A stretch of 37,852 nucleotides of DNA from Collodictyon triciliatum (taxonomy: Eukaryota), in assembly GCA_043381765.1 (NCBI GenBank), contig JBHJMP010000924.1, positions 1 through 37,852 on the forward strand, in the 5' to 3' direction. Both the position numbers and the translations under genes were made by a program. The notes under the pieces are model-generated. The model saw nothing but the letters and a program-made list of their open reading frames with translations. It had not been told where the DNA came from and did not search any database. The number at the start of each line of letters is the position of its first letter. Position 1 is the first letter of the stretch. This document shows positions 311 to 37,852 of this stretch, in pieces.

Positions 311-436
311 ATGGAGTCCTTCCCTGCGGACGCTGAGACTGTCACAAAGTACGAAAGCCTTAAAGCACTCGGGAAGGGTTCCTTTGGTACTGTGTCGCTT
401 GCACGTAACAAAGTAAAAACATTATTATTATTATTA

Positions 437-504
<68 letters not shown>

Positions 505-3500
505 TCCTTTCCGTTTGTCTCTTTTTTCTTATTCCTTTTTATTTCTTTCCGCTTTTTTTAATTATAGATGGATTTATTTGTAACCTTATGTGTCCTTGTT
601 ATTCCTTTTCTGTGATTCCTGGTTTTTTTTATAATACAACTAAATCTTGATACTCATATTCAATAACCATATTTGCTTTTTTTTTTTTAATCTTTCATGC
701 TTAGGTGACGAAGTCTCTTTGTGTAATCAAGCGGATTCGACAGGAAGATCAGACAAAGCAGAACATGCAGTCCATCCGTGATGAAGTCCTCTTCACTCTG
801 GATAATTGCATATCTATATCATGCTTGCAGTAGTTCGAATTCAACGAAAGATATACTCTTTATGTTCCTTTCATCTCAATCTAGGTGCGCCTGCTTTCTG
901 TCCTGAAGCATCCAAATATTGTTGGATACCAAGAGGTTTACACTGACCTCGCCGATGGAAATTGCATATGTATTGTGATGGATTTCTGTGATGGAGGAGA
1001 TCTTGATAAACGAGTTAGGCACGCAATCGAGCTCAACTACAGATTCGATGAAAATGTATAAATGATTTAATCTGTAGTTTTTTCACCTTAACTGTCGACA
1101 TGAACCAATCCCATAATTTTTGTTCCCCTTCATTTTTCTGTTGCCGTATGTTGGTACTCATGCTCACGTAATGTAGCAAGTCATGAGCTGGTTCACACAG
1201 CTGTTGATGGCTCTTGAATATCTTCACAAAAAGTCTATCATACAGTTCGTCTTCATCTTAATAGTGCATCGACCATGATATCCTTCCTTCCTTCCTTCCT
1301 CCTCCTTTTTTTTTTTTTTAATACAATGTACGAATTTTGCATATTGGTTAATTTTTCTTTTCTCCATTTTATTAGTCGAGATTTGAAAGGACAAAATGTC
1401 TTTCTTATGAAAAATGGCATGGTCAAACTAGGTTTCATATCTCGATAATCTAACCTCAGTATTTTGAATAGTCATCTTTTTCCATATTTTCACATATATT
1501 ATGCGATGTCATAATTGTAAAGATAATATTTCTATTCATTTATTTGATATATTTATAAACAAAGGCGACTTTGGTGTTTCTAAAACCATCGAAGAGAGTT
1601 CCATGGCAAAAACAATGGTTGGAACACCCTATTATATCAGCCCAGAAATCATCCGAGGCGATAAATATCCGAAAGCAATCCTTTAAATTTCGCCCCGTTT
1701 ATTCGATTCAAAGCCAACAGCAATACTTTGCATTTCATATTTGTGTATTCGTCTGGTTCACTTTTTCACAATATTCCCTTGACACTATAAACATATGATA
1801 CAAAATCGGATATATGGTCCCTTGGTTGTATTCTTTACGAGCTATGTACACTGAATAGACCTTTCCAAGGCGATGTAAAGTGCTTTTGATTTTTTTCATA
1901 TATCCCTTAATTTATGAAGTACAAGCTCAAAACATTATTCCTGAAATATAGCCATAGTGTATTGATTATGCATATATTGTCTCCATATTTACTTACAAAT
2001 TTCGTTCTCCAGAATATGTTCCAGCTCATGGCTTCTATACAGAAAGGAGAATACGTTCCTCTAAACGAAACGCTTTTTTCTCCTGGTATATGTCAACTCT
2101 CTTCCAGATTGCTCCAGATAAGCCCTGAAGCTAGGCCGAGTGCCAAACAAATTTTAGTGGATGCGTGGGTCACAGACCACGTAACAAGAGTAGCCGAAGA
2201 GCTTTCTGCCTCTGAGCCTGTAATCACATCCGATGCATCGAAACTGGGGTATTTTTTCATGATTTCCCCCTTAGAGATTGAATCGTCACTGATTTTGCAT
2301 GAACACCAGAGTAAACTGGGATATTGCGTGATTTTTTCCTTCATTTGATTCAAAATGTAAACTGAAATATTGTATGATAAAGGGGAAAATACAATTGTCA
2401 TTTTTTTTTTTAATATTTAATACATCTACCAACACAATTCAGAAAGCCTGCTTTTCCTTCCAAACGCCCCATGCTTAAGAGGACAGGAACTTCAGGGGGT
2501 GCCAAGATTCAAGTTAACACAACAAGTATAGTCACGGCACAAAATACAAGCAAAGACCCAACAATATCTGTTCAGATTCAAGTTCCTTCTTCCAGCATTG
2601 TAGATGCAATTTTGAGACCCTTTCACAAGGCTTCCTCTGTTTTTAAAAATATACATGAATCTGATGAAAAAGTTTTGAATAACCATGAAGCTCTTCTTCC
2701 TGATGTCAGTGCAGGGAAGGAAACAGAGAAGAGAATACAACCACATTCAGCGAACACAGCAGATAATAATAATCATACCCAGAATAACCACTCACGAGAT
2801 AATATAACATTACCCTCGATTAGCAAGGATACCACCCTCATACAGTTACAATCAAACCCGAATCATCATGTACTCCGAAACCAAAGGACGATGGGGTCTA
2901 TTCAACTTGGAACCCAAATACCATCAAAGGCCCCCCAAAAAGCAGAGCATGTTGCTGGACAGGCCGTCACTTTTACCGACACAGCCAGCACAACTTCAAA
3001 GAGTTTCCGTTCCCTCAAAACTGACATGACAGAACCGAAAACTGTCGATGCAGGGTCTCTGTCGAAAACGCCTCAATATGTGCAGCCGCAGTCGAAACCT
3101 TTATCTGAAATAAATCCAAACAGAATCAAACCGGCGGCCTACATACGACGAGATTCTCTCCCCAGGCCGGTTGTTCTACCATCCACAGTTTGCTCGGTAG
3201 GAACTTTTTCAAAGGAAACTTATTAATCCCTTCTCTAAATATTCCCTTAACTTTGATAAATAATTGTGTCTATGTAATATATCTTAAATATGCTTATATG
3301 TACTGAAAAAAAAAACGAAAATAAGTTAATTTTACATTTGCACAACACCCAACTTCTCAAATACTCTATATTACACAGAAACAACACGAAATGCACTGGC
3401 AAAAGAATCAGAAAACAATACCTCTCGAAACCGAAGACGAAACTGATATGTAATATGCACATATACAATCCTTAAACTCTCCAATTTTTCTACTTGGCAT

Positions 3501-5359
3501 TTTTGATTTATATTGTACACGCAACATTCAATATTTTTTTCGTTTGTGAATCAAATACCAGTAACGATTACCGAAATGTGCTTTAATAAATATAACCATG
3601 ATATAATTTATTTATTTAATGCATTTTGCGATATTGATTTAATCTGAGACCAAAACTAATTCGAACAAACAGAAATCATGGGCAAGAGCAAGACTTGAGG
3701 AGTTTCCTGTCTATCGTAAAAAGAAAGTTCAAAGCCTTCTTTGAGGCCCCTGTATCTGATTCTGAAAATACAGAGACGAGACTGAATCGAACGCCGAGTC
3801 CAAATACAAACCCTCGAAACCAGGAACAAAATCACACGATTATCGATTCGCGAAAGAGTACAAAATTCACCAGCAGCAGCGAACCCAGGTCACATGTCAC
3901 GAAGCGATACATCGACACAGAACCATCCAAAGGGATAGTGATTGACACACAATCCACCACGGACTACTCATCGAGCCTTTCAAACACGCCATCACCACGT
4001 TCACAATCTCCTTTGACCCAACCACTAGACAGGAAACAAACTCCAAGCAGTGTGGTTCGATGTATTCAGCCAGAGCAGGCACTCTACAAACCACAACCCG
4101 ACTCTTCCAGCGACTCTGACAACGACGCGACAGGGGCAGATGGCATCATTCTCAGGAACGCCGACGTCCCATCACCAGAAAGTTCAGCAACGTCTGGCAA
4201 GTCTGATTCTGGACAAGGTTTACGCCTGGCCAATCAACAAGAGAGCAACTCTGTAAACCAAAATGAAACCCACCAGAGCAGAGGGAGTAGCCCGCATATA
4301 CAGCCGACTGCAGGTCCAGACTCCTTGGCTACCTTACTCCGAGGAAAAGGACCCCACGAACCCATCCTGAGGTCGCCATATCTTTCATCAACATCATCCC
4401 CAATCACAAACCACACAGCCATCCCTCCAGGCTCACATCGCCACACACCCACAAACACTGACATTCGATCCAGTCCGTCTTTGCGTTCGTCCCCAACGCC
4501 AGACTCGATGACAAGTCCTGGCCTTCATTCAATCACTCATGGTGCCACGCCAATAGACCAGTTTCACCAGCGTAGAGAGCAGGCTGCAAATGCAATCGGT
4601 GACTTTCTTCCTGGGTACGACCCATCTGATATGCGACACTCTTTTACAAAGCCCAAAGGCATGCCACGTCGCTCCTCGTCGGTTGTCCGAGACTCGCTTC
4701 CGCCTCTTCACGCTCAGGACATTTCACGGATAGCAAAAGCCCTGCGGGATGACTGTCCACAAGGGGAAGATGTGAGACATGATGGGAGCGAATCGGCACA
4801 AGAGCAATCATCCAGTGTGCAACTTGACGCGTCCGGACTGAGGGAAAAGCCCAACGCAGGGAGCACATTCGCGGCATCAACAAATGGTGAGCCGCAGGCT
4901 GGAATGCTCCCGTACATCCGCCCCAGTCGCCGGTCTGTCCCATCAAGCCCAATACCAGACCACGTAAGAAGGAGTAAAGCAAAACAGGAGCGATGATATG
5001 CGCAAATGGGTTGTGAAAAAGAAGAAAAAAGAAGGCCAACTTTCATGCCCTTCATCGCGTGTTGTTTCCTTTATGTTCTTGAGGTCATAGTCGTGCTTTT
5101 ATCTTCTAACACAACATTGCATCGATAGGAGATGTCATCTGCGCTTGCTGTGAGCAGTAGTGATGAGCGTGCGTTGGGAATCATCAAACAAGTCCAAAGG
5201 ATGCCGATATCATCACTCGCCGCTCTGCAGTCACCCACAACCGCATCGCAAGTGACACTGACAGGCGAGTCTGTCACAAACACCAACGCAACATCAAATA
5301 CCGATTCGAGACCAACAGCCATGCTTAGGATGAGACCGTCGTTGCGTTCGTACCAATAG
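311..5359 (+). CDS. NEK: NIMA-related (NEK) Ser/Thr kinase with long S/T/P-rich C-terminal tail, ~12 exons
   Basis: Spliced exons 311-412, 705-785, 885-1055, 1177-1244, 1376-1431, 1565-1664, 1793-1874, 2013-2248, 2443-~3187, 3379-3449, 3673-4963, 5129-5359. They give [65 protein letters not shown] and RPSA, a typical NEK kinase domain. A possible upstream micro-exon ATG CTG at 227-232 splices in frame to 308. The NEK subfamily cannot be resolved. Confidence 0.92.
421..502. repeat. (ATT)n microsatellite in NEK intron 1
   Basis: Directly visible; it produces the spurious poly-Leu in the ORF track. Confidence 0.95.
1665..1792 (+). other. U12-type AT-AC intron (NEK intron 6)
   Basis: Donor ATATCCG, branch point TTCCCTTGAC (1774-1783), terminal AC at 1791-1792. 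Removal restores [11 protein letters not shown], and no GT is available at this junction. Confidence 0.9.
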
Positions 5360-5510
5360 CGCCTTTCGCCGTGTTGTTCTGGCAATGCGCTCATTATGCA
5401 AAGACTACTTTCCTCTGTGAAGCGTATACTCTTTTTTTCTTTTTTCTGTTCTATCTACTTCTCGAATACTTGTACTAGCCTCCCAAGAATAAATAAAAAT
5501 AACTAGAAGC

Positions 5511-5568
5511 ACAAACAAACAAACAAACAAACAAACTAACAAAAGAAAACAAACAAACTAACTAACTA
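5511..5568. repeat. (AAAC)n-like repeat between NEK and EXO1
   Basis: Directly visible, imperfect. Confidence 0.8.
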
Positions 5569-5668
5569 ATGATGTTGCTGTACTGGGGTTTGCTCCACAG
5601 TCGCCTCCGGACGGGTTTCTTTCAATCCCCCGCTTTTTGTCTCTCGTTTCAGAATCCCTTTCTTCGTC

Positions 5669-8600
5669 ATGGGGATATCTGGGCTGCTTCGCCACTTGAA
5701 GCCGAGCATCCCGAAAGTTCGTACGACGGAGCTGCGTGGCCGGAGAATCGGGATCGACGGATATGTGTGGCTACATCGCGGGGTTTTCATATCCTTGTCC
5801 GCGCGTTCATTTATTTGTTTATGCATTCATTTATTTTATTCATTTATTCATTCATTTATTCATTCATTTATGAATTAATTCATTTATTCATTCATTTATT
5901 CATTCATTTATTCATTCATTTATTCATTCATTTATTCATTCATTTATTCATTCATTTATTCATTCATTTATTCATTCATTTATTCATTCATTTATTCATT
6001 CATTTATTCATTCATTTATTCATTTATTCATTCATTTATTCATTTATTCATTTATTCATTCATTAATTCATTCATTTATTCATTCATTTATTCATTCATT
6101 TATTCATTCATTTATTCATTTATTCATTCATTTATTCATTTATTCATTCATTTATTCATTTATTCATTCATTTATTCATTTATTCATTAATTCATTCATT
6201 TATTCATTCATTTATTCATTTATTCATTCATTTATTCATTCATTTATTCATTCATTTATTTATTCATTTATTCATTCATTTATTCATTCATTTATTCATT
6301 CATGTATTCATTCATTTATTTATTCATTTATTTATTCATTTATTCATTCATTTATTCATTCATTTATTCATTCATTTATTCATTCATTTATTCATTAATT
6401 CATTTATTCATTCATTTATGCATTAATTCATTTATTCATTTATTCATTCATTTATTCATTCATTTATTCATTCATTAATTCATTTATTCATTCATTTATT
6501 CATTCATTTATTCATTCATTTATTCATTCATTTATGCATTAATTCATTTATTCATTCATTTATTCATTTATTCATTCATTTTTATATGCGCTGATTTGTG
6601 TACAAGCTCGTTTACATTAAAAAGAAAGGAACATAATGGCTCTGGTTGTGTAGAGTTCCTTGACTATCCTTCCTCTGCCTTTTATTTCCCTTTCTATTTG
6701 TTCCTCTGTTTATCTATTTGCCTTTTGGTTTTCTGTTTCAAACACTTGTGCTGCTGAGCTCGGACAGGGCATTCGAACAGAGAAGCATATTGGATATTTT
6801 ATGCGGCAGCTTGACTCTGTTTCTCGGCTTGGATTGACTCCCGTGGTGGTCTTTGATGGAAGAGAGTTGCCAGGAAAGGCACAGACAGAGCTCGACAGGA
6901 AAAAGTTCGATTAATCACCGACGTGTCTACACATATTTCATAGATGCCTCCGTACTTTCACCCTCATTAAAAATCGCTTGAGGAATTATTTCGCACTTGA
7001 AGATTTTATTCTCTCCTGGATTCTTTTTCGTATATGCTTTTGTAAATAATCGATTTATATTCTTTTATCGAACATTATTCAATTCAATCTATTTGGAATG
7101 ATTCCTCTATATTTCTTTCTCCTTTTCTCCCATTTCCTGCTGGTACTTGAATTGCGAATGCATGCAATCATAAGTATTTAGCTTGCCTCAATACCACCGG
7201 AAGGGTGAGATAATTAACTGTGCCATTACACCCTCTTTGATTTTGAATAGAAAGAGAGAAGAAAGCCGAGAAGCCGCACTAATACATATGCAAGAGAATC
7301 GAAAAGATGAAGCTTATTCTTGTTTTGCAAAGTCAGTCGATGTTACCCCTGAGATGGCCCATCGAGTGATTCAGGTATTTTCCTTTTTTCTCTCTCTCCC
7401 CTTCTTCTTTAACTCATTAACTATGATTTCAAGTATAATATAGAAGAATCAAGTAGAATCAAATAGGGTCGTTTCAAAATATGAAATTGACAGTAAAATG
7501 GAAAATGTTTATGCATTAGAGCCATTTAATGCAAATTTTCCTGAAATATATATGTATATCGATTGATATGCATTTATCTATCGGAAAAAGGAGGATATTA
7601 TCTATCGTCCATATAAAATACAATCGATAAATCAAAAAGGAAAAAATAGGAATGCAGTCACGTCACTCAATTTTCAATTTCTTACCTTTTTTTTTTATTT
7701 TAGGTATTGAGAAAGCGTGGTATTGAGTTTATTGTCTCTCCATACGAAGCTGATGCACAGTTAGCCTATATGTGTGAAGAAGGAATTATCGACCTTGTCC
7801 TGACAGAGGACTCTGATTTAATTCCTCATGGCTGTTCTATGGTATGAATACTTTGTAAATAAAATCTAATGATGCAGCATCAAAATCAAACTCATGATAC
7901 TTATTGATGTCTTGTGATAGATTCTGTTTAAATATTCCGCTGATGGTACTGGTGATTTGTTTACAAGAGATAATGTAATTTCAGACAAAGGAAGCCCTTT
8001 TTTCGAGTGGAACATGTCAAGTATCCTTGATGCATGTATACTTGCAGGTTAGTTGCATTTGTAACCAACAATCACATATTTTATTACTATCCACCCTGTC
8101 TCATAAATGTTCTTGTTTTCAAATGTTTCGCTCTAATATATTACCATTTTCTGATGGTATTATAATGTCAGGTTGTGACTATGTCCCATCCCTACCGGGC
8201 CTTGGGATAAAGAAAGCATGCACATACATAAGCACTTACGGATGCCTGGAGAAGGTGTTACCTTATATATATCGATAAGATTTTATTCAGGATTTAATAC
8301 TTTTTTATAGTGATTAATTAGTTGATAAAACCATACCACGCACCAAGCAGAATTCCCTATATTCAAATGTTTCTCTGTGCGCATATGTTTTTGTTGTTCA
8401 ATCTCGGTCTGGACCCTATGAAGGCTATCCAAGGTATCCAGCTGAGGAGGCTACATTCAGTATCCGACGAGTATCTTTCGCTAGCCATCCAGGCGCGGCT
8501 GACTTTTCTTCACCATATTGTTTATGACCCAAGGAAAAAATGTCTTGTGCATAAAACACCACTTCCTGAGAGTGCGCGTTATGAAAACTTTGAATTTCTT

Positions 8601-10585: not shown

Positions 10586-13500
10586 TTAGCGAGGCTTTGG
10601 TTTAGAATGTAATGGTTGTGGAGAGGCCGCTGGTTCTGCGCTGGGCGATTCACTCTTTTCTATTGCGTCCTTTTGTCTCTGCTTATAAACTCTATAAACA
10701 ACATCCTCCTTGTTTGTAATGAACGAGCGACGAGGCGGGACTTCGCGAGTGGGGCCTTCATTAAAGAAATAAATAAATAAAGAAATAAATAAATAAATAA
10801 ATAGTGACAAAAATCGTTCAGGTATCAGAAATAAAAATGAATAAATAAAAAAGAAGGGAGAGGTATATAAATTGAACTTTGTATCATCTTAGAATATCGT
10901 TCAGAGCCCAGTAATGATTGAAGGAATTCTGCCTGCTCGCCTGATGAGCTGTTGTGAGGCTCAAGTGACTGTGATATCTAAAATTCACCGCAAGATGGTT
11001 GAATTTATAGTAGCTGTTGCTTCACATATAACAAGAAATAAAAGCGTTCATTCGTTTGTTTAATAAAGTCTACCTGTCCTTTTGTTGGCTTTTTCTTTGA
11101 GACATCCAAATCTGCTGTAAACAACTTTGAATATTGGTACTCGTCCTCACCGATTTGCACGATTTTTTCTGATGCGTACTTTCGTTCCAAGAATCGGCCG
11201 AGCAAATACCTTTACAAATATGGCATGGGCGAACATGCATATATTTACAAAGTATTAAAAAACAACAATTAAATTCATGCTCACTAACATATTCCTCTGA
11301 ATTTTCACCTATGGAATTATTTATATACTCTCAAATATACATTCCTTCGTTTGGAGATACTATATCAAAACACTGCCACAAACATTTCATCATGTCGACG
11401 ATCTTCAAACTCTAATTCTTCTTGGATAAATCTGTCTCGGGCATCTGAAAGTTCCTGCAGATCTTTTTTCATTGTAGATCTGAGAAGATAACACAACCAG
11501 TAATTATTTTCTTTAAAACACAAACGTCACGACATCAAATAGTAATGGGTTTGCTAGTGAGTGCAAATCACGCAACAAAAAATTGTTGAATATATATACT
11601 TTCTCAATCGTCTCATTACCTTAGCTTGGCACATGCGAGCACGAGCTCCTTATTACTCATGTCAGATGTGTATTGAATCTATATGGAAGAGTAAATATCG
11701 ATACAGATGCATTCTGTAAAATACCATCACATATAAATTTAGGCACTCTGCAATTGGTTTGTTGCAACTCAGTTAGAGGATTTTCTTTCAGTATATTATC
11801 ACACATCGAAATAAATGCAGTAATCACCTTCTTCTCATCAGGAAATGGAGGAATCATCTTAAGTTGACGGCGCGGTCTCTCTTTTACTGTTATCGCAGCG
11901 GCTTGGGCCTCCATCTTTGCCATGACTTCGGCATCCGCTCGTGATATCTTTGTCCTTAGAATATTAAAAGTAATAGTTATCTGACAGTGGGTATAAGTCA
12001 AGGTAAAGCATTTAAATTTGATTATTTGGTAATCATAGAAAAAATACAATCAGGAACTGAATAGTTTTTGTACAATAACTTCAATATGGATTGTCTTTAT
12101 AAACAAATAATTGAAAGACGAATGTCTTACTTGGATTTGTCATCAAATTTGGCAATAATATCGTCGGGTGGTTTCCCATATACCTGAAACAATAACAATT
12201 TTAATAATAATAGGGTAAATAAATCGCTAATAATTAGCAAGGCTTTGTAATCAGCTATTCATCTTTCCTACACCTGATAGAATAATAATTGAAAAACAAA
12301 ACCTTGGACTTTTCCATCATTTTCTTGTAAGAGTCTTCAACTTGTGAGTCACTTTTGCGTGATGCTATTTGTCGCAAGTTTTGTCGCAGTGTGAGAAGTC
12401 GTCGTTTGAAGTTCTCTTCATCGATTCGTTTGTTGTCCTATTAATACATACCTTAGAATTGTTTGATGGGTGATATGTGTTGTTTCAAATAGGAAAAAAA
12501 AAATTCATAAATAATACTGTAGAATTAAATAGATTTCTCTGCGAACCTCTGCTATGAGTGCTTTAATAGCTTTTTCTGAAAGGTTGGACATTTCCTTGGG
12601 CTGCTTCGAGTTGAAGTCAACAGCTGTGAAACGAAAACGTTATTATTGTGCAAGAAGATAATTTCTCAACTTATTGCACAATAAGATGAATAAACACGGC
12701 ATCAATATGTATATTTTGTAACCGTTTTCAAGATTCAATATCTGAAATGCGTCAACAAGATCGTCGACTTGAGGGGCCTGTAAAACCATTGTTGTGAGGA
12801 TACTTTTTTTTTGTATCACCATCACATTTCATGACTTTGAATCGAATAAAAAAAAAATCATCATTTTCCAGGAACTGTATTGGTACCCTTCGAGAATACA
12901 AAATAAAAAAAAGGCGTTAACCAAATATTTACTTCACGGATAATAGCACCCCAATCCTTTCGATACCCAAATCCTTTCCAATCTTCGATGGTAATCAAAT
13001 CAGCATTCTTTTCCTATTTGGGGGTACAGTCATGAATAATACATGGCTTTAAATAGCAGAGTCGGCACATTAAGTATGATGTTATAAATCAAAACAAATC
13101 AAAACAAATCAAAACAAATCAAAATAAATCAAAATAAATCAAAATAAATTAAGATAAATTAAGATAAATCAAAACAAATCAAAACAAATCAAAATAAATT
13201 AAGATAAGTACATGAAGATAAACAAATGAAAACCTTGAGTTTTAAATACTCATTTCGCAGTATTTGAACAAAGTCAACTTTTGCTCGAATTTTACTCTTC
13301 TTCTTTGACGATAATTGCACCTCAGCTACATTTGTTTGACTGGATTTATGTGCTGAGCCATATAATTATAAGGGCAATCACCAAATGCATAAGAAATAAA
13401 AGTAGCTTTACGAGTGGTTTAGAGTCGATGATTTTTTTTATTAAAAATTAAAAACATTTAAGACAGCCATATGAACCTGCTTCACTCGTTTGGTTAAGAA

Positions 13501-16500
13501 GTAGCATATTTCGTTGCAACTGGTAGCTGAAGAAAATTATGGAATAGCGAATTTTATTGTTACAATTTCAACACCGCGCTCGAATTTTGGTAGTCGCTGT
13601 ACTCAAAATTGTTTGTTTCATTTATTCAACGTTTTCCTGTATTTTCAATATATGAGTAGATTTAAAGGCTACCCAAACTCATCTGACGACCCACGAAGGT
13701 GCGGATATGTTTCATCCAACTCATCACACAATCTTCGGCTTTTTTGAAGGGCACCTAGCGACTACAGAGAATTGCAAACGATGATTGTAAATGCTTAGTT
13801 TTACCAGTCAACATTGAAATATGTGGCCATCTGCTTGTTTATATTTCTGAACAAACTGGTGATATATATATTGAAGGTTTTACTGAGCTAAATGTCTCGT
13901 TCTCTCTCATTGAAGATGTAAATAGGTCATTTTCATTCTCTGTTTCCTATAATGTGCCCCTTAATTAAAATATGAAAGAAAAATGGAAAAGGCTCGAGGG
14001 GAAAATATCTCGTATTTGTGAATGAAAATACGTGTAGCATTTTGGATGTAGGCGTTGCGTGGTCCTTTGGGGATAATGCTAAAGAGCAGAGTCTCAGTTC
14101 ATTGAGTGAACTTAATTTTTTTTTAATATGTAGTAAACATATACATAAAGAAGCGATAAATATGTATGCACATTCATACGCATGTCACTCTGCCTAGGCA
14201 ATGCAAGTTTCAGTAGAGTAAGACGGTCGGAACGCTTCAGGTCCTCTTCATCAACCTTTTGATTTCCGAGCACCAGGAATGAAGGCGTGTTGTGCATTAA
14301 GGCTGTACACTCGATTTATAAACCAATATATCAAGCACAAACCTCTTCGTCATCGTAGATGTACTCGTCCTCTTCAAAACTTTCCTCATCACTTTCACCG
14401 ACATACAGCTCAGATGGTTTTTTGTGTTGTTTCCCCAGCGCGTCAAACTCTATCGCGCCATCTTTTTTCCTTCCGTTCCTATTTATTGCTCCCATATTAG
14501 CTTTATGTATGGATCTATTGTGAAGACAGCATATTCGCATAATTTCGAACAATTTTTTTTAATAATAAGAAAGATCCGATTTTTTTATTCTTCCTTTCAA
14601 TTTTGTGCAGGATAGTGAAGATGTTGGCAATAAGAAAGATTCGATAGAATTTGGTTGGGAACTGGATACCTTAAGAATTGCTCCACCCATGTATTCAGAT
14701 CTTTGTCCCTATTGTAAACGAAATGCAACATAAGAAAAAGAGTACCAACTTACTGTTTCATTTTTCTTGGGACAAAACATGCTACTCATTGTCTCTCTTG
14801 CGCGACTGTCTGGTTTTTTCATATTGAACAAGCTGCATCTCAGTTCGATGTGAAAAGTTGGCTTCGTCAAGGAGAGCCTTGAGAAATTCCTGTATTCTCC
14901 CAGAGAAATCAAATTTATTACATGAAAAATGACTCTGGACTCTTGTCTTTCAAATGTTTGTTTTTACCTTCCGTGCAATATCCTGAGAGGATAATCTCAT
15001 CGTTCTACTTGCGATTCGCGTAATCTTCTGATCCCTTTATTTGATTTAATGTTATTTCATTTGACTTTGGAACAAATGAATGAGCCAGGTAAGCAGGTAC
15101 GAATGATGCATATTCTAAATTGAAGGTCAAAAGTTCACCTCTCGAATTTTCTTTTCCATGTTTTCATGTCTAATTTTATCTCTTCAGCAGCTAAATTTAT
15201 TTCATCCACGGTGATTGGGGCGTCATTCAAGTCTGACAAACTACACATCAAATTTCAGTGTATATCTAGACCAAGACAGATACAAAAAAATTTTTCAAAA
15301 GACTTGTACGGTCTTTATTCTTGTTGCCAAAGTGATATGAAAAATAAAAATAAAATTTCGACTTATTCGGTACGAACCTGCGGAATGGGCCGCCTGGGCG
15401 CGGAGTTGGAGCTGGTCGTAGCTCAACCGCTATGGCCTCGCTGATAGCCCTATAGAGTACTTTTGATGATTGATGTCTTTCACTCTTCCTTACTTTTTCT
15501 TTTTCATCCGTTAATTAATTTACAGGAAACGAGAGCGCCATCATTGCTCTGATTTCATTCAACCTCCTCTATCTGCCCAATACACCAGGGAGAATAAAGA
15601 AAGGAAGTAGAAAACAAAGAAAGTAATAGAATGCAAACCATACGTAAAAAAATAAACTAAAAAAAGGGCAAACTTTTCACTGTAACGAGTGATGTTCGAG
15701 TGTCCCCTGCCGGATGATACGGAGGCAGACTGGATTATATGTGATAGAGCAGCAGATTGCCCGGTTGAAGAGTTTGTACTCGCGTTCGGAACTTGAGGCT
15801 TCTGACTCAAAGGAACAAGTTTTGCAGTCCTGTTTTTCATATATTACGAGACCAGGGCATTTAACATTGTTATATTAAAAAAAAAAGTGAAACCCAAAAA
15901 GATAACAATAAAAAAATAGAGAAAATGAAAGCCAGAAATGAGTAACCATATAATGCAATCAAACCTGAGATGAGCAGAAGAAGGACGTGTTGATTGGTGC
16001 GCATTATTCCCAGTATCGGCTGAGCTGTTTGCAGAATGCATATTAGCTCTTAATTTGTGCTGCATTTGTCCTTCTGGTGTTGTCCTTCCAAGAGACTGCA
16101 CCGGAGGAGTGGACGAAGCACGTGGATGCGGTTGACTATGGTGTGATGTTTGATATGACACGGCCTTGGGTGCTTGCTCTCCCACATCATGAGCTGTGGG
16201 TATTTCCTCACTGGGCGCGTCTTCCGCCTCAAGTTCATCGGGGTCGATAAATTGCGAAAGTTGGCCGTAAAGTTTCGAGAGGGCCGGTGATACATACTTT
16301 TTTCAAGAAAAGAAGTAAAAGATGTGCTATCCTGAAACTCTTGTTTGTTTGTTTGTTTGTTTGTTTGTTTGTTTGTTTGTTTGTTTGTTTGTTTGTTTGT
16401 TTGTTTGTTTGTTTGTTTGTTTGTTTGTTTGTTTGTTAATTAGAATGAAAATAAATCCATGTTTAAGTTATGGCTAATTCACCTGTCTCTTCTTTGGTAC

Positions 16501-18498
16501 ATTAGGTGCTTCTTGGTGTATCGAAGAGGCATTCCGACTGTCTATTTTTGGGTCGATTGGAAATGTCTTCATGTTGAACTCAAGCAAATCTTGGACAGTA
16601 AAGTCTGATGTAACAGTAAGAAAAATGATGAATTTTTTTTGTCCCTGAAATAATTACGTGCATAAAAGATACAAATATTCAAATTCCTTGAGAAGGAACT
16701 GGTCTCGGGATATTATTTAAGTGATGAATGATGTTCGCTAGAAGACCTTTGTATTTTCCTTGCCGAACGGTGGCAACCAAGAATGCCTCTATCAGGTACA
16801 CTCGTTGGTTGACAAAGGCGATTGGGTTATACCGGATGTCAAGTTTGGTTAATCTTGTAAGTGGTGCCAATGCCATAATGTCAAACTAAACAGGAAGACA
16901 AAGTTTATACGCTATATTTAATCATAATTACATAAGCACCGCAATACTTTATAATATTTTAGTGAATTCGTCGCATTTCATCATTCTTCCTGCATTCTTC
17001 GACTGGAAATAAAATTGAGTTGAATATTGACGGTTTCATTACCACGTCTAAGAGATGGTTATGGCTCAAGTCGAGTTCCTTGAGCAGTGGAAGAGAACTA
17101 GCAAATCTGGGTGCCAGAAAGTAGTTTTTTTGTGCGCAGCAGTGTCATTCAGTTGTTACTTATCGACTGGTCTCAGATGATTTATGATTATATAAGTACA
17201 AACTCTGCTCCTGGAATGGTTTGAATGGAGTTGTGGCTGATGTTCAATGATTCAAGCGACTGGAAGCGAAATATAATGGGTGGAAACACTTGAATTGTCT
17301 CTTTTGTTAGGTTCAGCTTTGGCATTCTTACGAGAAGGTCATCTGAAAATGTCTAGAGAAAGAGCAGCATGATTAAGAATCAAATATTGAACGAGGAATA
17401 AAGGCTTTTACATGAACAAAATAACAATTGAACGATGGAACACAAGAATAGGTACATAAATGTGCATGTTAAGTCTAATTCGCTAATAGCGATGGAATTT
17501 CTGTTTGAGAAGAATAGTGTGCCGAAATTAAGTTTGGATATACTTCCATCAGTGTTCGGATACTAGAGGGCATATTATGCTGGTCACGGACTGAAATGAT
17601 TGGTGGTGTTGAAACACCCGAGGAATCTTTCGAAGACTTTACGGACTAAAATGAAAAATAATCTTATGAGTAGGATAAAACTCTATCTATCGATTCATTT
17701 GGACGATAGTAATATTCAATATCTTTTGGAAGATATATTGTGATATATTGATGTAACATATCGGAGAGCAGGGAGAAATTGCAGGGGTATGGTAAGCTCT
17801 GTTAAATAATATGTGTACGAAGGATACCGTTAATTCATCTCCTCTTATATTCTCGGAGGTATGGTGAGATGCAGATGTGGATGCTCCGTCATGATCTGCA
17901 CGTGACCAAAGAAAAATAAAGATATTAGCTAAACAAAACTGAGTATTTGCCAAGTCTCATCATTCTCGAAAAACGAATCAATCAAAGTAATCCATTTTGA
18001 ATTATGATAAAGATGAAAAAAAAACTTTGGAATCGAAATCTAATTGCTGTGTGTAATATGATTTTTTAAACTTCATAAGCATTTATTTCCACGATTCTTT
18101 GAAGAAAAAACACTACATGACAGCAGGTTTCAAAATGAATAAAGAAATGAATTAGCTGATAAATAATTCACATATATAAATTCTCGTGTTTACCATCTTT
18201 CTGTCTTATATGGTTATGGTTGTGTGATGCCATATTCATCACAGCTTCCTCCATGAGTTTGGGCATAAAAGATCGACGATCAAGCGGACCAGATGCAAGA
18301 ACGGAGTCGAGGCGCTTACGAGAAGCCCTCATCGCACTCCCTGAGACCAAAAAGGATAGGAAAAGTTTCAATAAGTAATTCGCCAATCAAACAAAACAAA
18401 ACAAAACAAAACAAAACAAAACAAAACAAAACAAAACAAAACAAAACAAAACAAAACAAAACAAAACAAAACAAAACAAAACAATACAAAACAATACA

Positions 18499-18529
<31 letters not shown>

Positions 18530-18858
18530 CAAAACAAAACAAAACAAAACAAAACAAAACAATACAAAAAAACAAAGCAAAACAAAACAAAAAAAGGAGA
18601 GGAAAGGTCAGCACAATAAAGACGTAAAGACTTACCTGGGGCGAATGCATTAGACGCAACCCGATCCCGCAGCACGCGTGTGGACAGAGTCGAACCTCTT
18701 CTTTCCAAACCAGTGGGTATGGATCGAGACGCGTCGCTCTGCAGAGCAGCTGGGTTGGTTGATTGGCCTTCAAATCCCGCGCTCTGCATCGGACTAAGAC
18801 AGCAAAAGCGTGACGATTCACATCGTAATTCGTAGGAAGCCGTTTCCTTATGATGCAT
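10586..18858 (-). CDS. Large leucine-rich-repeat protein with acidic and coiled-coil C-terminal region, >20 exons
   Basis: LRR units LESLNISHNSIQTI, LKELDLSHNHL and LTKLDIRYNP, plus LRR-cap-like RVYLIE and LSDLNDAPITVDE. Most exons chain in phase with GT-AG introns from 18858 to the TAA at 10586. The start codon and the single-gene model are inferred. Confidence 0.65.
13086..13208. repeat. 10-bp tandem repeat (AAATCAAAAC/AAATTAAGAT variants), intronic
   Basis: Directly visible. Confidence 0.9.
16340..16437. repeat. (TTTG)n microsatellite, intronic
   Basis: Directly visible. Confidence 0.95.
18388..18595. repeat. (AAAAC)n microsatellite in LRR gene intron 1
   Basis: Directly visible. Confidence 0.95.
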
Positions 18859-19179: not shown

Positions 19180-21202
19180 CTAAGCGCTGCGTGTTTGGAG
19201 TGTGTCCAACGCGGGTTGGAACTCAGTGGCGAGCTGGTCGCACATTTTGATGTGGGAAGCGAGAGCCTAATTTTAATATGTAAAATATATTCACATTTTT
19301 TTCTACATACTTGATATACTCAACGGGTTGATGAGGGTTTATCTTTTACACCTTTTTTTTATCTTTATCTTTTTATATTTTTTCTGAGTGTAATTTTTTT
19401 TTCTTCTGTAAAATATCCAAGGAAGAATAACATCTCACCTCTCGCAGAGGAACTTCTGCATCTTGAAATCTTCTATTCCACGCGTCATACATTTCGCGCT
19501 TTAGTTTGAAATGTTCGTATTCAAATGCTTGCTTCTTGGAGAGTAGCTTGGCCTCATTCTGAGTTGATGTGCGATTATATTTGAAGATTGAGAAAAGAAA
19601 TAGAAATCAATATGGCAAAGGCAAAACAATATTAATTTACTTGATATTTTGTGGACTTCAATATCATTTTTCTTGAGTAAAAAACAAAAATAAAAGAAAG
19701 AAAAATGGTGATGGAATCAGATGAGAAAGTTACTCGAGGAAGACGCTCAGGGTCTGAATCCGCATGCATTTGAAGGTCTTGGACTTTGTTGAGGTAAAAC
19801 TCATAATCAAGCTCCTTGTTTTTTCTATCCTCCTCATTTTTCTACGAATGGAGTCACAACAGGTGAATATGACCGGCAACAGAATAATTTCGTTATAGAG
19901 TCGTCATGATATGATATTGGGGGAAATCTCAATATCCTTTGTTCCGTTTATGTAAAGAAACCTTGAAACTGTCCCACTGCTCCAAGTATTTCGAATATGG
20001 AGTTAACGCTTTCGACAAGAACCTTTCGACCTTATAGTATGTAAGATACCGTCATACAGACAAGGGCGCGAAAGATTGCAAATATTATAAGGAAAGCAAG
20101 GTTTTTGCACGCTTATTCGTGTAATTGCGTACCCTGCCGGATTTTTCCTCAGGGTCTCCGTGGCTCTTTGTCACAGTGTGGAACTTGGTCGCGGCCGGCC
20201 TTACTGTAGACTTGCTCTCCGTACAGTCAATAATGTGCGAAGACAGGCGATACATAACAGCGCTCAATGCTATGAGAAAACAAATCAAAGCTGTGCCGTA
20301 ATTCGAAAAATAAGACTCGTGTGCAAACACGAGAAAAAAATGGCGATTTGTTGATATGGAATATGCAAGGTACAATCGAGGGCTCATGAAAGACTGCAAT
20401 AGAAGAAAATATCGCTGATTCCTGTAGAAATGAATTATACGATTTTGTGCTGTGAGAAAAATGGTGGTGTAATAGTGGTATACTTCTCTGCGAATCCAGG
20501 TACTTTTTCATCTCTTTTTCTATACAGTCAGATTGGTGGGATAATACCACCACTTGATTGTACATCTTATTGTATTCCTGTGATAAATATTATTTTCATG
20601 AAAATATTTCCCATCAATCTGAAAGACCAAATGAACTACAACACTCGACGTTTTTTTTTTGTTTCGTTTTGTTTTGGTTTGGTTTGGTTTGGTTTGGTTT
20701 GGTTTGGTTTGTTTTGCTTTGTTTTGTTTTGTTTTGTTTTTGTTTTGTTTTGTTTTGTTTTGTTTTGTTTTGTTTTGTTTTGTTTTGTTTTGTTTTGTTT
20801 TGTTTTGTTTTGTTTTGTTTTGTTTTGTTTTGTTTTAGATTGCTTTGTTTTGTTTTGTTTTGTTTTGTTTTGTTTTGTTTTGTTTTAGATTGCTTTGTTT
20901 TGTTTTGTTTTGTTTTGTTTTGTTTTGTTTGGTTTGGTTTTGTTTTGTTTTGTTTTGTTTTGTTTTGTTTTGTTTTGTTTATTTTATTTTATATTATATT
21001 ATAAAGGGAGTGTTTTCTTAAGTCTTGTACCTCATCGTAAGGTGTGCTATGTCTTTCCTTGTCAAACTTTCGCAGCGTCTGCAAGCAGTGGGTATTAAAG
21101 ACAATAGAGACAAACAATAGAGAAAACCATTCTAACGCCTCTCACCTTCTCCTTGGTGCGTCTCAGCGATCCCTTGATTGAAGTCCACGATTCACTCGCC
21201 AT
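19180..21202 (-). CDS. BAR-domain protein (amphiphysin/Rvs161/BIN3-like), 7 exons
   Basis: Spliced product MASESWTSIKGSLRRTKEK...EMKKYLDSQR...DRKNKELDYEFYLNKVQDL...DPERLPRNEAKLLSKKQAFE. It shows an N-terminal amphipathic helix and the R.xK.LDY pattern of BAR domains. All introns are GT-AG; ends at TAG. Confidence 0.75.
20650..20995. repeat. (TTTTG/TTTGG)n microsatellite in BAR gene intron 2
   Basis: Directly visible. Confidence 0.95.
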
Positions 21203-27215: not shown

Positions 27216-29047
27216 ATGGCAGACGTCTTTGTTGCATATGAGACAGAGTTTTTGTCGATCAAAACAGCGCTTGGCCGGGTTTTCGAGGCAGTCGTGCGTG
27301 AAACAGGCGGTAAGAGACTTTCACTTTGGAGCGAACGTTTTGATTTCGTACGGCTGAAAATGATTTGTGCTTTTATGCCATGATTTTTTCTGTCTTTTTC
27401 TTTTCCTTTTTTTTTCTCTTTTTCATCTATTTTTCTTTTTTTTCTTTTTTTCTCTTTTTTCTCTTTTTTCTCTTTTTTCTCTTTTTTCTCTTTTTTCTCT
27501 TTTTTCTCTTTTTTCTCTTTTCTTTTCTTTTTTTCTCTTTTTCTCTTTTTCTTTTTTCCTCTTTATTCTTTTCTTTTTTTTTCATCTTTTTTATTTTCTT
27601 TTCTTTCTTTTCTTTCTTTTCTCTCCTATTTATTTAACATAATACTGCAAGGAAGATTGTTTTAATTATTTTTAACAGGATAATAAATATATATTTGTGT
27701 GTGTATTCTGAGAGCAGAACGGCGCAAAGTCACACTCAAAAAGGCTGAGAAGGACATCCAGGAGCTAGAGAGCATTGTAAGAAAACATCATCGGCTCAAT
27801 CATCACGATTTGATATAAATACACCCACACACGATAGCATACCTCCATGACCAAATCTTTAGTCCACACATTCCCAATCATCTTCCACATATCTACACTT
27901 TCCATACCCAGGCTAAAATATTTACTCGCCTTCCTGATTAATTGCTATATAATATATTACCTTTATATATGTATCAATTCAAAGCAAAAAGAAAAGTTTC
28001 CCTTATCGCCAAGTATCATCTATAACCTCGATTTTTTCCAGCTCCAATCGATGGACTTGGATGTCCGTGCAAGTACGGGAGAGGCAAAAGCAAAGCGAAG
28101 CACCGCACTGCAAGGATATAAAAACGACCTAGTTCAGATAAAAGCAAGTTATCGCAAAGCCATTCTTTCAGCCGACCAGAGTGAAGCGCGAGACAAATTA
28201 TTTGCAGAATCCGGCATTGAAATGACGGTACAAACCTTTCCAATATTCAGTTTGGCGTTGAAGTAAAAAAAAAAATAATCTGTCATTCGCACTTCGTAGT
28301 TGATGATATTATTCGCGAATTATTATTTTTAGAAAAATAATAAATTTTTGACTAAAATTTTTTATTCCTATTTCTATATTCCTATTTCTATTCTATTCCT
28401 ATTTTTATTATACTCCTATTTCTATTCTATTCCTTATTTACACGCAACTATCGCATCTGCCGCCACCACAGGACATGGCAACCGACCAGCGGCAGCGGCT
28501 TCTTGTGACCGAGGCCAAAGTCAACAAAACAACCCGGGCGCTGGACCAAGTGCACCGCGTAGCCTTGGAAACCGAAGAAATCGGCACATCCATCCTGTCC
28601 GACCTGTCTGAGCAGCGGGCAACACTCATGCGGGCCAAAGAAAGCGTACTCACAAACCCCATCACAACACAGGCCCTACCACCAAACCATGTCTTTTCCA
28701 TCCCTGATTCAAAGAGAGAGAGACATGAAGAGAGGAAGGAATGGAGAAAAAAACACTTAACAGCAGAGCCGCGCTACAAAAACACTGATACATTCAGTCT
28801 TTTCTTTTTTCTTTTTTTTTTATTATCGCCCCCAATAGAAAGAAAAGAAAAGGACACGGGATATTAAGATTTAATTATCTTTGTTGCAATGCAGTTGGAC
28901 CACGCAAACGACAATATCGCCCGCGCTCGCACCATAGTCAGCTCCATGGGGCGGCGCATGGTCACAAACAAACTTCTGCTCTACTTTGTCATCTTCATCC
29001 TGCTCGGCTCCATCTCCCTCATCATCTACTACAAGTTCATAGCCTAG
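27216..29047 (+). CDS. VTI1: Qb-SNARE Vti1
   Basis: N-terminus MADVFVAYETEF, LQSMDLDVR, SNARE motif DQRQRLL...RVALETEEIGTSILSDLSEQRATL, and MGRRMVTNK followed by a C-terminal transmembrane helix; 5 exons. Confidence 0.95.
27385..27625. repeat. Pyrimidine repeat (TTTTTCTCT)n in VTI1 intron 1
   Basis: Directly visible. Confidence 0.9.
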
Positions 29048-31055: not shown

Positions 31056-37530
<6,475 letters not shown>

Positions 37531-37588
37531 CTGATACGTGTTTGCGAGGCGGTTTTTTTTCTTAGGGAAACCAAAACAAGATGAACGT

Positions 37589-37852
37589 TTTTTTCTTTTT
37601 TTCTTTTTTTTCTTTTTTTCTTTTTTTCTTTTTTTTCTTTTTTTTCTTTTTTTCTTTTTTTCTTTTTTTCTTTTTTTCTTTTTTTTCTTTTTTTTCTTTT
37701 TTTCTTTTTTTTCTTTTTTTTCTTTTTTTTTTTTTTTCTTTTTTTCTTTTTTTTTTTTTTTCTTTTTTTTTTTTTTCTTTTTTTTCTTTTTTTCTTTTTT
37801 TCTTTTTTTTCTTTTTTTCTTTTTTTTCTTTTTTTTCTTTTTTTTCTTTTTT
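37589..37852. repeat. (T7C)n-like pyrimidine repeat at the window edge
   Basis: Directly visible. Confidence 0.95.

Follow-up and report, generated by a model that had tools for sequence, protein, structure and literature searches.

A predicted AT-AC intron of EXO1 in Collodictyon triciliatum with a consensus U12 branch motif 80 nucleotides from its acceptor

The first intron of the DNA-repair gene EXO1 encoded in a 37,852-nucleotide (nt) stretch of DNA from Collodictyon triciliatum (contig JBHJMP010000924.1, hereafter the window) has a perfect U12-type donor and an AC end, and carries a perfect U12 branch motif located 80 nt from the acceptor. Branch points of U12-type introns usually lie about 10-20 nt from the 3' splice site. 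This anatomy is real in the DNA, and it is unusual; the gene and the intron class involved are already known. The reading we prefer, tentatively and a little short of even confidence, is that this would be a genuine U12-type AT-AC intron whose branch motif has been displaced by a pyrimidine-rich, A-poor spacer, with branching at A6663. Somewhat more doubtful is the general proposal that goes with it, according to which the minor spliceosome would branch at this upstream consensus and cross the spacer to the first AC, breaking the short-spacing rule in the manner of a U2-type distant-branch intron with an "AC/AG exclusion zone".

The XPG-family nuclease gene of the window is EXO1, judging from its domains and structural matches: Pfam places XPG_N across exons 1 and 2 and XPG_I in exon 4, and the PDB matches are named Exonuclease 1 in five of five cases for exon 2 and in the best five among six for exon 1. 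Exon 1 (5669..5788, plus strand) runs from the ATG to codon 40 and ends in phase 0, and exon 2 occupies 6744..6904 (plus strand). Three independent alignments cover the junction between them. In the Pfam XPG_N profile, exon 1 takes up positions 1-40 and exon 2, from its second residue, positions 44-94, with residue 39 of the read-through open reading frame at position 41 and residue 2 of exon 2 at position 44. In the human EXO1 structure chains, residues 1-39 match exon 1 and residues 42-92 match exon 2, again from its second residue. The third homologue comes from a metagenome scan, where 594 pattern matches led to one confirmed locus (L001, 2878-3399, plus strand), an EXO1 that is 48% identical; its residues 1-40 match exon 1 without gaps and its residues 42-93 match exon 2. 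Since the metagenome gene has no intron through its first 174 codons, it informs the exon junction and not the intron.

These alignments confirm the junction 5788|6744 exactly, not one residue being lost or gained, and therefore place intron 1 at 5789..6743 (plus strand, 955 nt), with AT-AC ends and in phase 0, between residues 40 and 41 in human numbering; by its donor, it would be classed as U12-type. The reading frame remains open for 30 codons 5' of 6744, yet this extension bears no similarity to the homologues. In a search of exon 2 against longer proteins, none of 21 candidates matched, and no annotated or transcript-derived protein was found across the junction.

The 5' splice site ATATCCTT (5789..5796, plus strand) agrees with the U12 consensus RTATCCTT at eight of eight positions, and the branch-site motif TTCCTTGAC (6656..6664, plus strand) agrees with TTCCTTRAY at nine of nine, the predicted branch A being 6663, 80 nt from the intron end at 6743. 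The AC at 6742..6743 (plus strand) is the first AC or AG 3' of the branch motif, and frame and homology are restored only there. Over the whole intron, TTCCTTGAC is the sole 9-mer without mismatches to TTCCTTRAY; four others have one mismatch, all of them within a microsatellite more than 270 nt upstream, and no other 9-mer in the last 144 nt has fewer than three. On both strands of the window (75.7 kilobases), TTCCTT[AG]AC occurs twice and TCCTTRAY eight times, that is, 0.0026 and 0.011 expected per 100 nt. With about 0.003-0.01 occurrences to be expected in 100 nt, the branch motif of the EXO1 intron is unlikely to be a chance match. Window-wide, TCCTTRAY shows no enrichment, with 8 occurrences against 6.66 expected and at least 8 in 38 of 100 shuffles.

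The two perfect U12 motifs stand in the only parts of the intron that are not repeat, from which it is argued that the U11/U12 di-small nuclear ribonucleoprotein engages both. This particle would first dock at ATATCCTT (5789) and TTCCTTGAC (6656), a lariat would then form at A6663, and the exons would finally be ligated at the AC of 6742/6743, which holds the first A after the branch not followed by T, the spacer offering no rival AC, AG or AA. We infer from these signals the action of the minor spliceosome, the use of A6663 as branch, and the reaching of the distant AC without a nearer branch. About 80% of the whole intron is a microsatellite of 63 copies of the 12-nt unit TTTATTCATTCA, detected by Tandem Repeats Finder at 5818..6581 (plus strand). 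The unit itself resembles the U12 branch consensus, with two mismatches, and the four variant copies TTCATTAAT have one.

Between the branch motif and the acceptor lies the spacer (6665..6741, plus strand), which is 82% pyrimidine and poor in A (A7, C19, G7, T44). AG is absent from 6656 to 6743, where AC is found solely at 6663, within the motif, and at 6742, the acceptor; AA is likewise missing ahead of the terminal AAAC, and each of the spacer's five A's before it is followed by T. Windows of 77 nt with at least 82% pyrimidine represent 1.1% per strand, mostly in simple repeats. In a comparison with 11 other introns, annotated by hand, the EXO1 intron has the longest zone free of AC and AG before its acceptor (79 nt, against 4-44 nt) and the most extreme pyrimidine fraction over the last 80 nt (0.80, against 0.54-0.76). 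A sequence-only reading of this DNA had named TTCCTTGAC as the only good U12 branch point, with a pyrimidine-rich stretch devoid of AG and AC behind it and an acceptor AC restoring the EXO1 frame, and all of this is borne out by the motif counts, the base composition and the agreement of the Pfam, human and metagenome alignments on the junction.

A repeat search that included Tandem Repeats Finder showed the spacer to be neither a tandem nor a direct repeat, and the spacer's recursive or nested splicing is rejected because it contains no AG. Insertion or slippage probably made it grow, low-complexity expansions being abundant in this genome. Beginning 2 nt 3' of the branch motif, the sequence reads TATCCTT (6666..6672, plus strand), which has seven of the eight positions of the U12 donor motif and could be a U11-binding element or a product of chance (about 5%, estimated from the spacer composition).

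Several points weigh against a natural branch at such a distance. A pyrimidine tract is a U2-type trait. Dietrich et al. reportedly concluded in 2001 that cryptic sites come into use once the spacing exceeds about 20 nt, and that scanning for a distal 3' site is beyond the U12 spliceosome. Given the composition of the spacer, the absence of AG and AC exceeds chance only marginally, as 6665-6741, when shuffled by mononucleotide, is free of both in 973 of 20000 cases (4.9%); gaps of at least 77 nt free of AG and AC amount to 20 of 7700 in the window, about five of them non-repeat, judging from their start positions. The zone free of AG alone is ordinary, at 88 nt against 34-137 nt in the 11 other introns. 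An RNA fold that would bring branch site and acceptor together was ruled out (z = -1.45, with 18 of 200 shuffles folding equally). For human U12 introns, PMC3584512 gives an optimum of 11-13 nt between branch and 3' splice site and describes the distance constraints as rigid. Finally, in the AT-AC intron of the neighbouring kinase gene (1665-1792, plus strand), the branch A lies at the canonical 10 nt from the acceptor.

This kinase intron has the donor ATATCCGA (ATATCC), the branch motif CCCTTGAC with its predicted branch A at 1782, and AC at 1791-1792, and the Pkinase profile continues unbroken across it (173|174). It suggests that the organism very probably possesses a working minor spliceosome that recognizes the classical CCTTGAC branch motif at the classical distance, and its 10-nt spacing means that any relaxation would not be a general shift in the minor introns of this organism. 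As far as one control intron can show, the EXO1 intron is an outlier in its own genome. Both AT-AC introns terminate in AAAC followed by A, and two of them in neighbouring genes represent a high local density. An Rfam scan of the window gave no matches, and no small nuclear RNA (snRNA) gene was found there.

Taken by the usual marks of a U12-type intron, intron 1 of EXO1 presents the donor consensus, an AC end that restores frame and homology, and a branch consensus. It departs from them in the distance between branch and acceptor, which stands outside both the human optimum and the published search windows, as far as these are given in the sources cited below (8-45 nt overall), and in having a distinct polypyrimidine tract. 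The description of a U12 intron with an atypical 3' end in the sequence-only reading therefore stands as regards EXO1, the AT-AC donor and acceptor and the off-textbook 3' layout, and is incomplete in that it left unconsidered the minor-like and hybrid intron classes and an in-frame GT-AG alternative, both discussed below. The further suggestion of a modified mode of minor splicing, through scanning or a U2-like tract, did not hold up as well: in view of the weak depletion of AC and AG, the spacing in the kinase intron and the rigidity stated in PMC3584512 for human introns, such a mechanism is possible but unsupported for the EXO1 intron, and partly contrary to published constraints.

The same junction could also be produced by a minor spliceosome that recognizes the donor but branches at a non-consensus site near the acceptor, with the tract aiding 3' recognition, which would make this a "minor-like" or hybrid intron. 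The candidate branch residues would be A6712 or A6716, in TTTATCTAT, or those of the terminal AAAC region, and the motif at -80 would then either be left over, cut off from the acceptor by a recent insertion, or serve U12 only as an auxiliary place to dock. Such introns constitute a described class, with a strong minor donor, a weak or absent minor branch motif and, in some cases, a tract (PMC11347168); the same source reports that just 46% of the mapped branches of human minor-like introns fit the predicted minor motif. A good branch site at 10-20 nt is, according to Sheth et al., "not always necessary" for classification (PMC1557818), and Pineda and Bradley describe human U12-type branchpoints as bimodal, half of them more than 20 nt away (PMC5959240). 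The pyrimidine fractions of the last 20, 40 and 80 nt of the EXO1 intron (0.75, 0.78 and 0.80, respectively) are within or above the range of the GT-AG introns of the organism, and a further candidate intron of the window, with the donor GTATCCTT (17827-17646, minus strand), is likewise devoid of a consensus U12 branch motif near its AG. However, every 9-mer between -8 and -79 has at least three mismatches to TTCCTTRAY, most of the candidates lack the A's, an unused motif perfect at nine of nine positions ought to decay, and the last 13 nt of the intron (TTCTGTTTCAAAC) are pyrimidine at only 8 positions. We regard this branching near the acceptor as possible, though rather doubtful.

A major-spliceosome alternative would start further upstream. 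The GT at 5783 lies six bases 5' of the U12 donor and, together with the AG at 6757-6758, recalls a twintron-like competition of two spliceosomes. An excision by the U2 spliceosome between GT 5783 and AG 6758, which would make the intron slightly larger, could rely on the pyrimidine tract, with CTTGAC or an A of the tract as branch, and the U12 signals would then be vestigial or part of a twintron-like alternative. The reading frame would be kept, the AG is the first one past the tract, and in a GT-AG intron near 12003 (minus strand) a CCTTGAC stands 15 nt ahead of the AG. The GT-AG donors of the organism are degenerate (GTTCGA, GTTCGT, GTTTCA, GTCCTC), so that GTTTTC is within their range. 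Nevertheless, the product would be short of seven residues (profile positions 41-47), which do align to the homologues, with three identities to the metagenome EXO1 and no gaps in Pfam and human EXO1, and a donor of eight out of eight together with a branch motif of nine out of nine is hard to see as a vestige. Excision from 5783 to 6758 is thus decidedly unlikely.

The spacer may also have come at a cost. A recent insertion, or an indel specific to the assembly or the strain, could have crippled a once canonical U12 intron, resulting in retention or in the use of weak, frame-shifting A-T ends, with EXO1 down-regulated or decaying. The genome readily undergoes low-complexity expansion, as seen in the 63-copy repeat of this very intron and in many simple repeats, and the nearest A-N ends past the branch (6685 and 6697) would shift the frame; moreover, U12 introns are described as slow or rate-limiting (PMC3584512; bioRxiv 10.1101/2021.10.18.464728). 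Against this, all the EXO1 exons examined are intact and conserved, the spacer is no tandem repeat, and there is no sign of misassembly at the site, which makes poor or non-productive splicing unlikely.

Even less can be said for a U2-dependent AT-AC intron (type II), with the same termini excised by the major spliceosome. Introns of this type exist (PMC1557818), the pyrimidine tract and the distant branch are traits of the U2 type, and donors in this organism are degenerate. However, the known U2-type AT-AC donors, according to the same source, fit the U2 consensus save for the A at their first position, while the donor of the EXO1 intron is ATATCC, a perfect U12 donor that is accompanied by a U12 branch motif. 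This type of excision appears highly unlikely here.

Other U12-like signals are scattered over the window. RTATCCTT is found nine times on both strands, against 2.7 expected, and none of 100 shuffles reaches nine. These nine matches, as annotated here, comprise one confirmed donor, that of EXO1, one candidate, and four that are sense or antisense to exons or belong to a CT repeat; the remaining three lie at 19932, 33024 and 35833, and the kinase donor ATATCCGA falls outside the nine. The candidate is on the minus strand, where the open exon of a leucine-rich-repeat-like gene stops exactly at a perfect GTATCCTT and an intron could extend over 17827-17646, with its AG at 17647-17646; possibly, this is a minor intron of the GT-AG kind whose branch site is degenerate. 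Several of the U12-like signals were discarded. The copy of ATATCCTT at 1278 belongs to a CT repeat inside a GT-AG intron; GTATCCTT at 8021, TCCTTGAT at 8024 and CTCCTTGAC at 14872 (minus strand) are coding; the matches at 28112 and 2825 are antisense to exons; and the CCTTGAC at 12003 (minus strand) belongs to a GT-AG intron, ahead of its AG.

The window as a whole is intron-rich and laden with microsatellites, with a G+C content of approximately 24-47%. By Pfam, its genes encode a protein kinase (NEK-like), the XPG_N/XPG_I nuclease, Nse4, a Vti1-like SNARE and RPS24. The best match of RPS24 among 845 has 73% identity, and its named relatives, which include chytrid and other fungi, plants and Physarum, are at about 64%. 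In the kinase and EXO1 genes (413-8171), exons are short, of about 60-170 nt, and the major-type donors are highly degenerate after the GT (GTTCGA, GTTCGT, GTTTCA, GTCCTC, GTAAAA). Exon 2 of EXO1 is followed by a GT-AG intron read from the sequence at 6905-7250 (plus strand), and intron 3 starts at 7375. Long simple repeats of purine or pyrimidine occupy 1-145, 18377-18622, 20650-21004, 27352-27651 and 37569-37852, and an assembly gap (N run) at about 34900-35650 has GT/GA dinucleotide repeats on both sides.

Among the constraints held to define minor splicing is a short and fixed distance between branch and acceptor, which the programs that search for U12 introns have built in. If a natural branch 80 nt away were true, this constraint would not be universal, and the EXO1 intron would offer a ready substrate for the study of how the minor spliceosome picks its 3' site. 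Every current U12 predictor, its search window reaching 55 nt at most, would then misfile such introns, and the "minor-like" bins would hide true minor introns. Should splicing instead rely on a cryptic branch closer to the acceptor or on the major spliceosome, the case would be an ordinary one, a further example of class drift in the minor intron of EXO1.

Such a change of class from one lineage to another has been documented before for the minor intron of EXO1, as far as the published comparison goes: human and mouse have EXO1 among their minor-intron genes, and within the orthologous cluster the zebrafish intron counts as "minor-like" and that of maize as "major" (bioRxiv 10.1101/2022.10.12.511939). 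Exo1 is also listed as a minor-intron gene in plants (PMC12956336). What human and mouse have in common with the present case is the gene family, a likeness at the level of the gene rather than of a compared codon position.

Textbook U12 introns, as laid out in PMC3584512, have their branch 11-13 nt from the acceptor and no pyrimidine tract. With the canonical AT-AC members of this class, represented here by the kinase intron, the EXO1 intron shares the ATATCC donor, a CCTTGAC-type branch, an AC after AAAC and the residence in an "information-processing" gene. It differs from them in its spacing, with 80 nt instead of the approximately 10-20 nt of the class and the 10 nt of the comparator, and in its pyrimidine-rich tract, which they normally lack according to that source.

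Physarum polycephalum, with its transformed U12 system, represents another lineage whose U12 3' signals are off the textbook (bioRxiv 10.1101/2020.10.12.336362). There, a TTTGA branch is reported 9-12 nt from the acceptor, along with a co-evolved U12 snRNA, whereas the two AT-AC introns of the window carry the classical CCTTGAC. A branch of the Physarum type was ruled out for EXO1, as TTTGA does not occur in the last 45 nt of the intron, and the RPS24 of the window is just 64% identical to a Physarum transcript.

Closer in its features is the class formed by minor-like and hybrid introns, defined by Olthof et al. in 2024 in the scheme of the Minor Intron Database (PMC11347168). Shared with it are a strong minor donor, the absence of a minor branch from the usual search window and a major-type pyrimidine content near the 3' end, although at -13 to -1, where the scheme scores the tract, the EXO1 intron has pyrimidines at only 8 of 13 positions. 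The search windows for U12 branches are given as 8-30/38 nt in PMC1557818 and as up to 45 nt in bioRxiv 10.1101/2020.10.12.336362. The EXO1 intron, compared with this class by description and not through the matrices of the scheme, differs in having a perfect minor branch motif just outside those windows, and AT-AC ends. Within the limited collection of papers searched, no U12 intron with a consensus branch this far upstream was found described.

In terms of distance, a parallel is offered by those U2-type introns in which an AG exclusion zone follows a distant branch. For U2 introns, branches at over 100 nt are on record (PMC1557818), and distal branchpoints are reported to amount to 8-9.5% (PMC5378181, PMC5959240). 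In both, a long pyrimidine-rich stretch without acceptor dinucleotides leads from the branch, predicted in the case of EXO1, to the first usable acceptor; the distant-branch introns, however, are excised by the major spliceosome and have GT-AG ends, whereas the EXO1 intron has AT-AC ends and U12 motifs.

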